Origin: an uncultured Chlorobiaceae bacterium
GTDB lineage: Bacteria; Bacteroidota; Chlorobiia; Chlorobiales; Chlorobiaceae
Assembly: GCA_903866255.1 (NCBI GenBank)
Contig: CAIPMW010000029.1
Location: 13,689-77,688 of the forward strand
DNA length: 64,000 nucleotides
Reading direction: 5' to 3'
The notes under the pieces are model-generated. The model had not been told where the DNA came from. It worked only from the letters and a program-made list of their open reading frames with translations, and ran no database searches. How positions within the stretch are numbered: the first letter of the stretch is position 1; each line of letters starts with the position of its first letter. The position numbers and the translations under genes were made by a program. This document shows positions 1,247 through 9,842 of the stretch, one piece after another.

Positions 1247-2278
<1,032 letters not shown>

Positions 2279-2316
2279 TCAATGAATATCACGAAGGATT
2301 TCCACACGCCAGCATG

Positions 2317-3468
2317 TTAACGGAGAAATCCCATAATAATGCCTGCGGCTATTGCTGAACCAATCATTCCTGCAACATTCGGCGCCATGGCATGGACGAT
2401 CAGATGATTGTTTGAATCAGCCTTCAGCCCTTCACGCTGGACAACGTGCGCACTTTCGGGCATGGCAGAGACACCTGCCGCCCCTATCAACGGGTTGATT
2501 TTGTTCTCTTGTGAAAGAAAGATGTTCATGAATTTTGCAAAGAGAACACCTCCGGCAGTTGAAATCATAAATGCAACAGCACCGAGGACAAAAATGTACA
2601 TCGACTGAGGTGTCAGAAAGGTGGTTGCCTGCGTTGTAGCACCTACCGTAACACCAAGCATGATAATGACGATGTCATGAAGTCCGTTTTTGGCGGTATC
2701 GGCCAGCCGTTTGGTCACGGTTGATTCTTTAAGCAGATTGCCAAAAAAAAGCATTCCAAGGAGTGACAGTGATGCGGGTGCTATAAAGCCGGTTATAAGA
2801 AGAGCTACAATCGGAAAGAGTACCTTTTCATATTTGCTTACCGCACGCGGAGGGCTCATTTTTATGATTCGCTCCTCTTTTGTCGTTAACAGCCGCATGA
2901 TTGGTGGCTGGATCACCGGTATCAGCGCCATGTAAAAGTAAACGGCAATGATAATGGAGCCCATGAGATGAGGGGCAAGTTTTGAGGCAAGAAAAATGGC
3001 CGTTGGCCCGTTAGCGGCACCAATGATACCGATTGCCGCAGACTCAAGGTTGTTGAAGCCCAAGGTAATGGCTCCGATATAGGTCATAAAAATGCCGAAT
3101 TGAGCGGCAGCGCCAAGCAGAATAAGCCTGGGGTTTGCAATAAGGGTGGAAAAGTCGGTCATGGCGCCGATGCAAAGAAAAATCAGCGATGGAAAAATAC
3201 CTTTGAGCAGGCCCATATAGAAGAAATTCATGATGCTGCCCTCCTCATAGAGCCCGAGTTGCATCCCTGCATGTTCTATAAACGGCGTGTTTCCTATAAG
3301 TATGCCAAACCCTATCGGTATCAACAGCAGCGGTTCATATTCATAGCGGATTGCAAGGTAGATAAAGAGCAATCCCAGCAGGATCATCAAGAGGTGACCC
3401 GGTGTGGCATTGGCAAAACCTGAATTCTCCAGAAATCGTATAATTCCTTCCATAATGGTGTTATTCAA
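2317..3468 (-). CDS. mmdB: Na+-translocating decarboxylase beta subunit (OadB/MmdB family), with variant catalytic motif
   Basis: YEPLLLIPIGFG, IGAMTDF, NPLIG..GVSA, HAM.PNVAG motifs; multi-TM; GAANGPT instead of GGADGPT. Confidence 0.9.
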   Translation of the reverse strand: MNNTIMEGIIRFLENSGFANATPGHLLMILLGLLFIYLAIRYEYEPLLLIPIGFGILIGNTPFIEHAGMQLGLYEEGSIMNFFYMGLLKGIFPSLIFLCIGAMTDFSTLIANPRLILLGAAAQFGIFMTYIGAITLGFNNLESAAIGIIGAANGPTAIFLASKLAPHLMGSIIIAVYFYMALIPVIQPPIMRLLTTKEERIIKMSPPRAVSKYEKVLFPIVALLITGFIAPASLSLLGMLFFGNLLKESTVTKRLADTAKNGLHDIVIIMLGVTVGATTQATTFLTPQSMYIFVLGAVAFMISTAGGVLFAKFMNIFLSQENKINPLIGAAGVSAMPESAHVVQREGLKADSNNHLIVHAMAPNVAGMIGSAIAAGIIMGFLR

Positions 3469-3877
3469 TTTCTATAAGAATATCGCCCTGCATGACCGTA
3501 TCGCCGACGGCAACTCTTACACTTTTTACGATGCCTGGCTTTTCAGCAAAAATATTGTTTTCCATTTTCATTGCTTCAAGTATCAGAACAGGCTTTTCCA
3601 TCTTGATCTGCATACCCGGCTCTACAGAAATCGAAATAATTGTTCCAGGAAGCGGAGCCTTAAGCAAGCTCAGGCCTGGAGTGATGAACACTGGCGCTTT
3701 TGGTGGCGTCGGGGGAGTGTAACGGACAAGTTTCGGGGTTTGCGTTTTTTTGATCTCATGGCCAAGCTTGACCTGGTAGCTGGTGCCGTTTACCTCAATT
3801 TCAGCGACATCCTCATCAAGAGTCTTGATTTCAACATTGTATTTGTTACCACTTATGGTAAATTTATATCGCCTCAT
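3461..3877 (-). CDS. mmdC: Biotin carboxyl carrier protein (gamma subunit)
   Basis: EAMKME biotinylation motif, Pro-rich linker, APLPG. Confidence 0.9.
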   Translation of the reverse strand: MRRYKFTISGNKYNVEIKTLDEDVAEIEVNGTSYQVKLGHEIKKTQTPKLVRYTPPTPPKAPVFITPGLSLLKAPLPGTIISISVEPGMQIKMEKPVLILEAMKMENNIFAEKPGIVKSVRVAVGDTVMQGDILIEIE

Positions 3878-4248
3878 CGTTTAACAGGGTTAAAATTAAT
3901 GACATTGTATATTTTTGAATTCCAGGGAGAGTAGCTTTTCCCCTCTTTCTTTATGGTCAGAATAGCGGTTTCCTGATCGTGCAGCTCTTCGAAGTACATT
4001 GAAATAGCCATGGCAATTGCTGCGCTTACCTCTCCCGGAACCATTTTGCCAGCAAACAGGGTGTCGATTTCATCACCCTCTTTCTGCATTTGTTTTCTCA
4101 GGTTTCGCGTGTGAAGCCTGGGAAGGATGCCAAAAACCAGTGAGAGCAGAAACAGTGCAAAAAAGACAATGACGTAACATGATACAGCAAGCGCCAGATG
4201 TTCCGCGCCGATTGCTGAAAAGTTAATCGGCAAAAATAGTGTGATCAT
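3874..4248 (-). CDS. OadG-family small membrane subunit (delta)
   Basis: Single N-terminal TM, AAIAMAI segment, SPWNSKIY tail typical of Bacteroidota OadG; position between carboxyltransferase and biotin carrier. Confidence 0.8.
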   Translation of the reverse strand: MITLFLPINFSAIGAEHLALAVSCYVIVFFALFLLSLVFGILPRLHTRNLRKQMQKEGDEIDTLFAGKMVPGEVSAAIAMAISMYFEELHDQETAILTIKKEGKSYSPWNSKIYNVINFNPVKR

Positions 4249-4269: not shown

Positions 4270-5811
4270 TTAAAGTGGCAGTGTTGAGTGCTTTTTGGGA
4301 GGATTGTTATCTTTTTTGGTCAAGAGCGTCTGAAGTGCGCGGATTATCCTGAAACGGGTGTTGCGTGGTTCGATGATATCGTCGATATATCCGAATTTTG
4401 CTGCTTCATAAGGATTGGCGAATTTTTCACGATACTCCGCTGCATTTTCAGCAACAAACTTTGCCCGTTCTTCCACATCTTCGATGGTATTCAGATTCCT
4501 GTTGAAGAGTACCTCAATGGCGCCTATCGGGCCCATGACAGCAATTTCGGCAGTCGGCCAGGCATAGTTGACATCACCGCGAAGCTGCTTGGAACTCATG
4601 ACGATGTAAGCCCCGCCATAAGCTTTTCGCAGGATAATGGTGATTTTTGGCACCGTAGCTTCAGCATAAGCAAAAATCAGTTTGGCACCGTTGGTGATAA
4701 TGCCGTCAAACTCCTGTGCGCTGCCGGGCAGGAAACCTGGAACATCGACAAGGGTGACAATGGGAATGTTAAAGGCATCGCAGAATCGGACAAACCTGGC
4801 TGCCTTGCACGATGCGTTGATGTCAAGACACCCGGCAAGGTAGTTGGGCTGGTTGGCAACAATACCGGTAGAGATGCCATTAAAGGTGACAAAACCGATA
4901 ACAATGTTTCTTGCATATTGCCGCTGTACTTCGAGGAACTCTCCGTTGTCAGCAATCGAATAGATGATATCCTTCACATCATAAGGTATGGATGGCTTTT
5001 CGGGTATGATGGAGTTCAGCTTGTCGTCAAGTCGGTCGGCCGGATCGTCACATATAGCAAGAGGTGGTTCCTCAAGATTGTTCTGCGGAAGGTAGCTGAG
5101 CAGTTTTTTGATCAGCAGGATTCCTTCAGTTTCATCCGCGCCCACAAAATGGGTGACTCCTGATTTTGTGGCATGTACCGAAGCGCCTCCAAGATCTTCG
5201 TCACTGATGCTCTCTCCGGTGACGGTTTTGACAACTTTCGGACCGGTGACAAACATGTGACTGGTTTTTTCTACCATGACCACGAAATCAGTAAGCGCAG
5301 GAGAGTAGACCGCGCCGCCCGCACATGGCCCGAAAATGGCAGATATCTGGGGAATAACCCCGGATGCCATGACGTTTCTCTGAAAAATACTTGCATAGCC
5401 GGAAAGGCTGCGAACGCCTTCCTGGATTCTTGCACCACCGCTGTCGTTGATTCCTATGAAGGGGGCACCGACTTTCATTGCCTGGTCCATCACCTTGCAG
5501 ATTTTCAGTGCATTGGTCTCTGAAAGTGAACCTCCAAGAACGGTAAAATCTTGAGCGAAAATATAGACAAGACGCCCGTCAATGGTCCCGTGCCCGGTAA
5601 TTACGCCGTCTGAAAGATAGTTTTCCTTGTCGAGGCCAAAATCAGTTGTCCGATGCATGACGAACATGTCATACTCTTCAAAACTCCCTTCATCAAGCAA
5701 CAAGTTGAGGCGTTCACGAGCCGTAAATTTTCCTTTTTTATGTTGTGAATCTATGCGTTTTTGTCCGCCCCCGAGGCGAGCTTTATCGCGTTCCGCAATC
5801 AAGCGTTTCAT
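4270..5811 (-). CDS. mmdA: Acyl-CoA carboxyltransferase (methylmalonyl-CoA decarboxylase alpha / PccB family)
   Basis: [54 protein letters not shown] motifs. Confidence 0.9.
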
Positions 5812-6069
5812 TGGGTTTTAGGATATTGATTAACTAACTTGCCGGACAATATTTTCTTGTCTGAACAACTACCCTCTGTCCATACGAGCAGTAAAATTGT
5901 CCCGGTTATGCAGTGGCACCGTGCAGAGAGCTTACCCTCAATCTCTGTATTTATGTATATTGCCCCCGAATATTGGAAAAAAAAGGGAATAACCCTATGC
6001 TGTTGTGAATATTAATAATATTTTATTTTTGTTAATACTTCTGGTGTTCCAAAAGAAAGCGACAAATCC

Positions 6070-6831
6070 ATGACTCCTGAGCTGCAGCATGCTGTTGAAA
6101 TGGCCGAACAGGCTGGAAGGTTGACTCTTTCCTGGTTTTCCAAAAAATCCCTTCAGGTTTTCACAAAAAGAGACTCCTCCCCGGTTACTGAAGCTGATCG
6201 AAATGCTGAGGAGCTTATTCGCAAGGCCATCAAATCACGATATCCTGATGATGGAGTGCTGGGCGAAGAGTTTGAAGAGCATGTTGGTAATAATCGTCGT
6301 CGTTGGATTATTGATCCTATTGACGGGACAAAAGCGTTTATTCATGGTGTGCCTCTCTTCGGAGTGATGATTGCCCTTGAGATTGAGGGAACTCAGCAAC
6401 TTGGTGTTGTATATTTTCCGGCCCTTGGCGAGCTTTATCATGCAGAGCGGGGGTGTGGAGCTTATTGTAATGGCTCTCCGATACAAGTCTCGTCGGTTTC
6501 TGATATCTCCGTTGCAACGGTGCTGTTTACTGAAAAAGAGTATTTGCTCGATTCTTTATCCCTTCATCCGGTGGATATGCTGCGTCATGATGCTGGACTT
6601 GTTCGGGGTTGGGGCGACTGTTACGGACATACCCTTGTTGCCTCAGGTCGTGCAGAGGTTTCGGTTGACAAAATCATGAGTCCCTGGGATTGTGCTGCAC
6701 TCATTCCAATCGTGACCGAAGCGGGTGGCTGCTGTTTTGATTACACTGGAGTGACAACAATATCAGGTCAGGGACTGGTCAGCGCCAACAAGGCGATCGG
6801 CACGGCCCTGCTCGCCACCATAACCCCTTAA
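6070..6831 (+). CDS. hisN: Histidinol-phosphatase, inositol monophosphatase family
   Basis: [35 protein letters not shown] motifs. Confidence 0.85.
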
Positions 6832-7604
6832 AGAGGAGAATGATGCAGCAACTGATTACTGATTACTGTCAAAGCCTCCGCTATTGCCCTGGCTAACCCC
6901 GGCGCATCAAATGATTCCGGGATGATATCCACTTGAACTCCAAGCTTTGCAAGAGCCTTGGCGGTTGTGGTGCCTATGGCGGCAACCTTGACACCATCAG
7001 GCAGGGCGGTTGTGCCCATTGCTTCAAAAAAATTGATGGCTGTGGAGGGACTCGTGAACGAGAGACAAGAGAGTGAGCCACTCTCAAGCAGCGCTTTCAC
7101 CCTGGCGGTCTCTTCAAGGGAAGGAGGCAGATTTTCATACACGGTTAGTTCAATACAGATTCCTCCCCGTTTTGTAATCACTGCAGGTATCGTTCCCAAC
7201 GAGAGGCTTCCTCTCAAAAAAAGAAAAGTGCGGCCAGCAATTGTTTCACTTGCAATCTCCTCCATCATGGTGACGGCATCGGAAACTTTGGCAATTGGTT
7301 GGGTTTCAATACCATGCTTCGCCAGATCATTTCCTGTCGTTTTGCCGACAGCCCATACCTTGAGTTGTTGAAGAGTAGTCAGTTGATCGGGTGCTTCAAG
7401 CCGTAACTTTTCCAGAAAGAAGTGGACACTATTGGTGCTGGTAAAGAAAACGCCATCAAATTGTCCAAGGTCGGGCACACACCAGCCCGAAATTGGTCTG
7501 ATCTCGATTGTAGGAAAAACAACCGAGTCCAGACCATAGCCTTCGAGCATACTGACAAAAGAGGCCGACTGATCCCTGGGTCGGGTAACAAGAACAGTTT
7601 TCAT
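6828..7604 (-). CDS. hemD: Uroporphyrinogen-III synthase
   Basis: [29 protein letters not shown]; overlaps hemC. Confidence 0.93.
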
Positions 7605-8545
7605 CAGCGAGTTTTACGGATCTGCGAAAGAATTGCGTCAGCGCCCTGTTTCAAAAGCTCCTCAGCAAGAGCAATACCAACCTCTTCAGCCTGTTCAGGG
7701 GAGGTGAGCCCGGTCTTTGTGATCTCGTTATGGATACCAACTTTACCATCAACAGAACCGACATAGGCAAGGATCTTGAGCGTGCCATTTTTAAACGAAC
7801 CATAAGCACCGATCGGGATCTGGCATCCACCCTGCAGATGGCGAAGCAATGCGCGCTCTGCACGGCAGCAATATTCTGTTGTAGAGTGGTTGAGAATTCT
7901 CACGATTTCTCTCGTCTGCTCATCATCAACACGGGTCTCAATGCCGAGAGCGCCCTGTCCAACAGCAGGAAGCATAACTTCGTGCGGAAGGATTTCGGAG
8001 ATGCGATCGCTGAAATTCAGACGGAAGACACCAGCATAAGCAAGCATCATTGCATCAAATTCACCATTGTCAAACTTCTGAAAACGGGTATTGAGATTGC
8101 CTCTGATATCACGGATATCAAGGTCAGGGCGAAGGCTCAGCAACTGCGACATACGGCGAAGGCTGCTGGTGGCCATTTTTGCGTTCGGTGGCAAATCTTT
8201 CAGCTTGATGCCATTTTTTGAAATAATGACATCCCTCGTATCCTCACGCTCAGTGAATGAGGTGATGATAAGTCCCTCAGGTGTGCCTGTTGGAACATCT
8301 TTCAGGCTGTGAACTGCCAGGTCAATCTCTTTGGCAATCAGATGTTTTTCAATATCCTTGGTGAAAAGCCCCATATCCCCGATTTTGGAGAGAGGTGAAT
8401 CAAGAAGGACATCACCGGTTGTTTTAACCAGTTTCAGGGTAATATCCAGTTCTGGAAAATGTCTGGAGAGTTCCGCCTTGGTGAATTCTGCCTGCCACAA
8501 TGCGAGCGGGCTGGATCTGGTACCGATGATAAGCTGTTTTTTCAA
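7604..8545 (-). CDS. hemC: Hydroxymethylbilane synthase
   Basis: [45 protein letters not shown]-like [11 protein letters not shown]. Confidence 0.97.
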
Positions 8546-8564
8546 AGCAATTACAGATTTTTAT

Positions 8565-9842
8565 TTAGTATGACTGATTTGGTTCTTCAAGATCGAATAC
8601 GTTTCGCACAAGATTGACTCTGCTCGGTATGGAGTCGGTTGTATCCATTGGAGCCTTGAGCATTTTGATGGGGTGGTGAAGGATTTTTTTCAGGATTCTG
8701 TCTGTCAGGTGCTCCATTCTCTGCAACTCCTCCTCGCTTACTTTGAAGCGGTAGCGTTCGAGCTCCTTTTCCTTGATTTCAATAAACTTTGACTGAAGAT
8801 CGACAATTGTTGGCCGCACCTTCAGGGTATTAATCCACTGACCAAAAGCCACAAGCTCTTCATCAATGATGGCATGGACTTTGGGTAGCTCCTTGCTCCT
8901 TTTTTCAAGATTCTTGTCGATAATATGCTTCAGGGCATCAATATCCTTGAGGAACATGTTCTGAAGTTTGGCAATATCGGGATCAACATTTCTCGGTAGG
9001 CCAAGATCAAGAATAATCACCGGTTTAAGCTTGCGCTTGATCATGCAGCGGTGCATCTCTGGTTCCGAGAGGATGTACTCCTTGGTACTGACTGCGGTGA
9101 TGATGATATCAAATTCGTGGAGATGATCTCTGAACGATTCAAATGGAAGTACCTGATTGGTGCCAAGCTCTTCGGCAAGCGCTTCAGATTTTGAAAGAGT
9201 TCGGTTGGTAATAACAATATTGCGGGCGTTTTTCTGGAAGATATGCTTTGCGGCCAGTTCACCGGTTTCACCTGCGCCGATGAGCAACACCTTTTTCAGT
9301 GAAAGGTTGGAGAAGATCTTCTGGGCCAGTTCAACAGCGGCGTAGCTGACAGAGACAGCCCCCTCCATGATTTTCGTCTTTGTCTTGACCTTTTTTGCGA
9401 CACTGAATGCGGTATGGCAGAGACGGGTGAGCAGAATTCCGGCAGACTGTGTTTCAGCCGCAATGCGATAGGCATTTTTGACCTGACCAAGAATTTGCCC
9501 TTCACCAAGAACGAGAGAGTCAATGGCGCTTGCTACTTCAAAAAGATGACGTGCTGTGCCACAATAAAAGCGGGCAAAAAAGTGTTCCGGTCGAACCTCC
9601 TTGCGGGCATCCTTGAAAGAGATGAGGTACTCCTTGAGATACTCACAGGTGACTTCATGCATTGCAGGCACAACATAGAGTTCCGTGCGGTTGCAAGTTG
9701 AAATCACCATAGCCTCCTGGGCCAGGCCGCCTGAAATCAGGCCGGTGATAAACTCTTTGTTCTGAACTTCAGAAAGGGAGATTCTTTCACGGATTTCAAT
9801 AGGTGCAGTTTTGTGGTTGACACCAACTGAAATGATGTTCAT
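8565..9842 (-). CDS. hemA: Glutamyl-tRNA reductase
   Basis: STCNRTELY (catalytic Cys), [24 protein letters not shown]; likely start MNIISVG at 9842. Confidence 0.97.

Follow-up and report, generated by a model that had tools for sequence, protein, structure and literature searches.

The window analysed here is a stretch of 64,000 nucleotides from a member of Chlorobium whose own genome holds one OAD_beta gene only. It carries four co-directional minus-strand genes in the order alpha, OadG-like subunit, biotin carrier and beta, flanked by suhB and hemB. The features discussed below are these, with residues of beta given by their Salmonella OadB (St) positions unless stated otherwise:

2317..3453, minus strand: beta subunit, a carboxybiotin decarboxylase of the MmdB/OadB type, 378 aa from the ATG at 3453
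2446..2469, minus strand: tip of hairpin 2, S-A-M-P-E-S-A-H, with Ser382 kept and V384M, D386E and R389H
3010..3012, minus strand: Asn at St position 203, codon AAC (N153 of the 383-aa open reading frame)
3334..3336, minus strand: Glu at the Glu40 position, codon GAA, kept here and replaced by Gln or Lys in sister Chlorobium groups
3461..3877, minus strand: biotin carboxyl carrier, MmdC-like, with an AMKM biotinylation motif (PF00364, E 1.9e-15)
3874..4248, minus strand: small membrane anchor, OadG/MmdD-like (PF04277, 29.2 bits, cut-off 27)
4270..5811, minus strand: carboxyltransferase alpha of the MmdA/PccB type (PF01039, E 8.6e-195)

Judged by gene order, the cluster is a putative "sodium-translocating decarboxylase" of the methylmalonyl-CoA decarboxylase type. 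In profile searches beta matches PF03977 (OAD_beta) over its full length with E 1.6e-141 and 471.8 bits (cut-off 31.6), as well as TIGR01109 with 452.4 bits (cut-off 190.6), and its HMMER alignment to Salmonella OadB (6IVA) has E 1e-106. The best NCBIfam match of alpha by far is TIGR01117 (mmdA), at 786 bits against an equivalog cut-off of 998.8, and the match of the biotin carrier to NF047903 (MmdC) stays under the cut-off. By homology, the substrate would be methylmalonyl-CoA. A promoter and terminator scan of the operon gave no signal above chance.

The listed open reading frame of beta begins at a TTG (3468), encodes 383 aa and runs over the stop codon of the preceding biotin-carrier gene. 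Its true start is probably the ATG at 3453; homologues are 378 aa long, and the numbering shifts by 5. An AF2 model of beta (pLDDT 79.5) has 6iww_A as its best PDB match (E 1.6e-23, TM 0.81, 46% identity) and contains two helical hairpins meeting at their tips (helices 135-146/149-159 and 321-327/332-345). In this model Asn203 falls between the paired helices of hairpin 1, while Ser382 is located at the tip of hairpin 2.

Altered residues in the ion cavity

Two motifs of the window protein depart from the Salmonella sequence. GIIGAANGPT lies opposite GIIGGADGPT of 6IVA, with Asn in place of Asp203 and, two residues earlier, Ala in place of Gly201. SAMPESAHV lies opposite SAVPMAARV, with Met386 replaced by Glu (E338, codon GAA, 2457-2455) and Arg389 by His (H341, codon CAC, 2448-2446). 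Both the alignment and the codons agree letter for letter with the Asn, Glu and His substitutions of the original prediction, whose numbering (N153, E338, H341) is correct for the 383-aa TTG frame and whose claim that the N373, G377 and S382 equivalents are kept is borne out by the 6IVA alignment. Besides these three, the window beta keeps E40, Y229, R304, N311 and N412.

Most of these positions have been probed by mutation. E40, D203, R304, N311, S382 and N412 of StOAD are essential and line one cavity, in which D203 and S382 are Na+ ligands; D203A and S382A each abolish Na+ binding as measured by ITC (PMC7274780). Of these two ligands of Na+ site 1, the window beta retains Ser382 only. The KpOAD mutants tabulated in PMC7274780 Supplementary file 1B, among them D203N from Di Berardino & Dimroth 1996, are equally clear. 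D203N and D203E have 0% OAD activity, have lost the pump and leave 98% of the enzyme stuck as carboxybiotin, which upholds the earlier statement that D203 is required in Klebsiella. S382A also has 0% activity, and the inactive D203N and S382A enzymes keep 98-100% of their carboxybiotin. G201A lowers activity to 20% and raises half-maximal Na+ from 0.5 to 2.3 mM. The statement that R389 is likewise required was too strong: R389A and R389L keep 10% and R389K 70% of the activity. The coupling mechanism of the pump family is still regarded as open (bioRxiv 10.64898/2026.06.08.730933).

The Asn203 clade and its relatives in Chlorobium

The window beta belongs to a clade, N1, in which Asn203 is present in 16/16 non-redundant sequences of a residue table comprising 229 non-redundant sequences. 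At least 16 distinct N1 sequences, 76-98% identical, were recovered. In a beta tree of 83 rows all 9 N203 sequences group together as a single clade (SH-aLRT 100), which has a long stem of 0.24 changes/site and is nested inside Chlorobium; the clade grows with added sequences, to 15 rows in a 70-row tree and 16 in the residue table. Among the 120 closest database proteins, Asn203 occurs only in the five nearest (88-97% identical) and in a deep branch, P0049 (76%), and the rest have Asp; further N1 members come from GTDB species genomes and metagenome contigs. At 97%, the closest relative is Chlorobium L442 Bin 64, which comes from a lake on the Boreal Shield.

The same motifs recur in independent assemblies and metagenomes, so they are not a read error, and fixation of Asn203 across a clade reaching down to 76% identity refutes a strain-private change. 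Both Asn codons, AAC and AAT, are used at position 203 within the clade, so Asn has been retained through synonymous turnover. A dN/dS check (Nei-Gojobori), taken within groups rather than on the stem branch since dS is saturated between groups, gives 0.034-0.066 for beta inside N1, comparable to the 0.029-0.09 of Asp-bearing Chlorobium; the partners alpha (0.02-0.06) and biotin carrier (0.04-0.15) are similarly constrained. No stops or frameshifts were found, the full operon and hem-gene synteny are intact in every N1 member examined, and gene order is constant in all relatives examined. Together these observations show that Asn203 is neither a read error, nor strain-private, nor the product of a decaying subunit.

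E40, Y229, R304, N373, G377 and N412 are present in 16/16 N1 sequences and N311 in 14/16. G201A, D203N, S228F, V384M and D386E are all fixed, and residue 389 is His, Arg or Asn. The idea of a rewired site thus survives in its general form, carried by these five fixed changes, while the new Glu/His pair that it invoked does not. SAVPDSARV is the motif of the Bacteroidota/Ignavibacteriota/Chlorobi subfamily, in which Asp386 was already there, and Glu338 is a conservative, fixed D-to-E change. N203 and E386 do co-occur as fixed features of N1, and His389 (H10/R3/N3) is not a mark of the clade. A compensating new acid in the cavity was also considered and rejected: there is no new Asp or Glu among the N1-diagnostic columns, Glu386 being derived from Asp386. 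As a separate observation, in most N1 members the loss of Arg389 goes together with a fixed Arg at St 393, one helical turn further on hairpin 2 (H341...R345; window 2434-2448).

Mmd-type betas were taken from 61 Chlorobium species genomes and classified by their residues at 203/382/386/389:

DSDR (canonical): 12 genomes
DSDL/I: 11 genomes, with E40K and R389L/I
DSN(K/Q): 5 genomes, with S228T/I/M, D386N and R389 as R/K/Q
DAE(R/K), or DA: 21 genomes, with E40Q, S228T, S382A and D386E
N1 (NSEx): 8 genomes
N2 (NA(D/E)N): 4 genomes, with E40Q, G201A/T/V, D203N, S228C, G380T/A, V381L, S382A, V384I and R389N

A third Asn group, N3, was represented by a metagenome contig (L123) and combines A382 with Q386. 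Eight positions, E40, G201, D203, S228, S382, V384, D386 and R389, do not vary in any of the 54 outgroup and 36 canonical Chlorobium sequences; these cavity positions are replaced only in the derived groups and in group-specific combinations. Carboxylates there become amides (D to N, E to Q), so that charge is lost and shape is kept. N55, D149, G200, G204, Y229, Q237, R250, R258, E298, R304, D315, N373, G377, N412 and others remain invariant in every group, and the residue table has 17 functionally probed residues constant in all groups. The ion cavity has been remodelled in a targeted way, in a protein that is otherwise frozen. With hairpin tips defined by the secondary-structure positions of the AF2 model, the hypergeometric enrichment of group-diagnostic columns in the tips is marginal for N1 (4/19, p = 0.064) and has p = 0.014 for N2.

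The DSDL/I group has Lys at position 40 in 35/35 sequences and Leu or Ile at 389 in 35/35. This looks like a charge swap and hints at an interaction between E40 and R389.

Origins, wider distribution and the sodium cycle

N1 and N2 are sisters in the beta tree with an SH-aLRT of 90 from all columns, which drops to 12 without the cavity columns. A grouping of N2 with DA is not rejected (p-AU 0.22), and the trees of the flanking hemB and suhB genes put N2 next to a DA genome. Either D203N, or E40Q together with S382A, would then have arisen twice or moved by recombination. The alpha DNA tree in turn disagrees with those of beta, bccp, gamma, hemB and suhB (window; loci L002-L010 and L103-L112), and the window alpha is 93-97% identical to its counterparts in groups whose beta reaches no more than 71-77% identity. 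Such a difference points to recombination within the operon, or else to a homogenised alpha. The discordant alpha tree also confounds the use of beta dN over alpha dN to gauge acceleration. P0049 (L082, an ERZ27275044 contig, 8001-9137) has a branch of 0.36-0.43, reads GIIGAANGAT and GISAMPESARL, and has 12 unique derived states in common with N1; its flanks place it outside N1. It may be either a lineage that acquired an N1-type beta or a fast-evolving one. Together with the discordance of alpha, this mismatch makes exchange within the operon likely.

Loss of Asp203 extends beyond the genus. When metagenomes were scanned for IIGxANGPxAI, Asn203 turned up outside Chlorobium in at least 8 lineages unrelated to one another, at 44-66% identity. 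Most are full-length frames, a few lying on cut contigs, and most adjoin a biotin-carrier gene, some also anchor or carboxyltransferase genes; some of these lineages have a remodelled hairpin 2 or A382. Among the best 150 cluster representatives of the family, Asp203 is present in 133/147 aligned, and the few with N, H, S or A often have A382. Betas without Asp203 are rare but recurrent, and no mention of natural ones was found in open-access literature text.

Two further kinds of sequence were encountered. P0192, P0193, P0219, P0204 and P0189, distant cluster representatives of the family, have His, Ser or Asn at 203, mostly with a non-Ser residue (usually Ala) at 382, and form a second kind of Asp203-less beta. 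Three metagenome contigs (L117, L120 and L124) carry IIGGANGPTAI(F) and resemble beta over only ~20 residues; their reading frames may belong to a distant family with the hairpin-tip motif or be chance matches.

The residue states run parallel to the presence of other sodium machinery. PF03116 (RnfD/NqrB) is found in 12/12 canonical DSDR genomes and in 0/49 others, the window's genome included, and every one of the 49 genomes without Rnf has lost one or more of the residues with a demonstrated role in Klebsiella/Salmonella OAD. In green sulfur bacteria Rnf is a Na+-translocating ferredoxin:NAD+ oxidoreductase; Cbi. limicola, luteolum and phaeovibrioides have it and others do not, and OAD and Mmd are listed as further users of the Na+ gradient in Cbi. 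phaeovibrioides (PMC11269200). A second OAD_beta exists only among the 12 canonical genomes: it is clear and full-length in 10, a fragment at a contig end in G102 and absent from G101 (85% complete). Cbi. limicola (G031) is the sole genome examined for its neighbour, and there it adjoins an OadA-like gene, which marks it as a true oxaloacetate decarboxylase. Only one part of Chlorobium appears to have a sodium cycle (Rnf, OAD and canonical Mmd). A single branch separates the canonical genomes, which are basal, from the one clade made up of the derived genomes, so the 12/0 versus 0/49 correlation with Rnf may reflect a single historical event.

The second OAD_beta of Cbi. limicola (L183, G031:C1:884000-892000, ORFs 45-1619 and 1667-3217) has 516 aa with an N-terminal extension of ~158 aa. 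It directly follows an OadA-like gene that has its own biotinyl domain, and the extension may be a fused anchor subunit.

Methylmalonyl-CoA mutase (PF01642), which is present in almost all Chlorobiaceae, has two matches in the window's genome, the best with E 7.2e-228. A paralogous carboxyltransferase, 55% identical to the window alpha, is encoded in a sister genus and in roughly half of the Chlorobium genomes without Rnf; it was looked for in the window's genome and is absent, leaving the Asn203 complex as the only candidate between methylmalonyl-CoA and propionyl-CoA. The paralog is part of a transcarboxylase-like operon (L182 of the sister genus, G105:C10:65700-77200, ORFs 4376-4771, 5003-6547 and 6585-8090), in which it is the 12S-type carboxyltransferase beside a 5S-type HMGL/PYC_OADA subunit and a 131-aa biotin carrier of the 1.3S type.

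Function of the Asn203 complex and comparison with known pumps

In the reading that we favour, at a probability of roughly 55%, the operon encodes an active complex of the methylmalonyl-CoA decarboxylase type from which the obligatory dependence on sodium has been removed. The first sodium site of the pump would have been dismantled, rather than lost by decay, in an uncultured freshwater lineage of Chlorobium. The branch would have given up its Na+ cycle and then come under selection for carboxybiotin decarboxylation without cytoplasmic Na+, in a complex that would link methylmalonyl-CoA and propionyl-CoA. Where Na+ is very low, as would be the case in soft Boreal Shield lakes, and Rnf and OAD are gone, a decarboxylase gated by Na+ would be a handicap. 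Neutral Asn203 could stand in for a Na+-neutralised or protonated Asp, which would leave the enzyme either uncoupled or with a different coupling ion. The main point against a Na+-free active enzyme is that KpOAD with the identical D203N change is dead, so that activity of the natural variant needs compensation, and no compensating mechanism is demonstrable from sequence. Retention of the natural variant by purifying selection implies, on the other side, that some function has been kept.

The dead Klebsiella mutants can also be taken at face value. Beta would then be silenced and kept as a scaffold that anchors the carboxyltransferase, carrier and OadG-like subunits at the membrane, while the soluble parts pair with a different partner and serve, for instance, in carboxyl transfer or carboxylation, and carboxybiotin is shielded from futile decarboxylation, much as the inactive D203N and S382A enzymes of KpOAD hold on to it. 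Sister Chlorobium groups without S382 and/or E40 fit this scheme, as does labelling in Cbi. limicola, which suggests that propionate assimilation passes through methylmalonyl-CoA and so runs towards carboxylation (review PMC11269200). A mere anchor, however, should not hold N412, R304, E298, D315, Y229, N373 and G377 invariant, nor keep dN/dS at ~0.04 over the whole length of beta, and the new residues A201, N203, F228, M384 and E386 are themselves fixed. The window's genome has no second carboxyltransferase or 5S-type partner, and a whole genus in the family has no beta at all, so an anchor is dispensable. We consider this explanation unlikely.

Odds that are longer again attach to a complex that is still a Na+ pump, with a site rebuilt from the amide oxygen of Asn203, Ser382, Glu386, Asn412 and backbone carbonyls and perhaps altered in affinity. 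An Asn side chain is able to ligate Na+; Ser382, Asn412 and Glu40 are kept in N1, and a longer acidic side chain at 386 (D to E) is found in 16/16 N1 sequences. Against this, D203A ends Na+ binding in StOAD and D203N ends pumping in KpOAD. Related N203 groups do without S382 and E40 (N2) or have Gln386 (L123), unrelated N203 lineages carry Met or Ala at 386, and the other Na+ machinery of the genus is missing from the genomes concerned. The last alternative, that the gene is simply decaying or that a miscalled base has produced an artefact, could call on a single G-to-A transition at a residue essential in the model enzyme and on a gene family dispensable in parts of Chlorobiaceae, but is already refuted, and left with hardly any probability, by at least 16 distinct Asn203 sequences in many assemblies with both Asn codons, no stops or frameshifts, dN/dS of ~0.04 and intact operons.

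Returning to the favoured sodium-independent decarboxylase, it can be extended to a more daring proposal, which we regard as improbable. The betas without Asp203 (N1, N2, N3 and the unrelated Asn/His203 lineages) might be the first family members not to use sodium, acting as proton-coupled pumps or, in reverse, as carboxylases driven by the proton-motive force through which propionyl-CoA would enter the reductive TCA cycle in freshwater phototrophs. More immediately, the annotation "sodium ion-translocating decarboxylase subunit beta" is probably wrong on the ion for most freshwater Chlorobium.

Asp203 has been seen as the catalytic and ion-binding heart of the pump family since 1996. Chlorobium offers a natural series for separating sodium binding from carboxybiotin decarboxylation within one genus, in orthologous operons kept by selection: from canonical to R389L/E40K, S382A/E40Q, D203N and finally D203N+S382A+E40Q. 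At least two of these states are available in culture, the canonical one in Cbi. limicola DSM 245 and S382A/E40Q in Chlorobium sp. KB01 or a clathratiforme-type strain.

As a whole, the operon is presumably a counterpart of the methylmalonyl-CoA decarboxylase Na+ pump MmdABCDE (Veillonella parvula, Propionigenium modestum; Bacteroides-type mmd operons). The gene set and order are alike: carboxyltransferase, OadG-like anchor, biotin carrier and beta. The nearest sequence relatives in this Mmd comparison are SAVPDSARV-type betas of Bacteroidota/Ignavibacteriota, at 65-72% identity. The full canonical cavity, D203/S382/D386/R389, is found in 54/54 outgroup betas and not in the N1 clade. The Mmd-type betas of Chlorobium limicola DSM 245, Pelodictyon luteolum and Cbi. 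phaeovibrioides are orthologs, 76-79% identical and in the same position (hemA-hemC-hemD-suhB / operon / hemB-aroC). These three canonical betas are DSDR and their genomes have Rnf and a second, OadA-linked beta, whereas the window's genome has neither.

OadB of Klebsiella pneumoniae and Salmonella typhimurium (6IVA/6IWW) has in common with the window beta the family PF03977, the fold, the two helical hairpins and E40, Y229, R304, N311, N373, G377, S382 and N412. The window protein differs in having Asn for Asp203, plus G201A, V384M, M386E and R389H. Unlike OAD, the window operon has a carboxyltransferase of the acyl-CoA (MmdA) type rather than OadA, and its biotin carrier is a separate protein. 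The closest experimental parallel is the engineered KpOAD D203N, which bears the identical substitution at the identical position; that mutant is dead, whereas the natural variant has extra fixed changes around the site.
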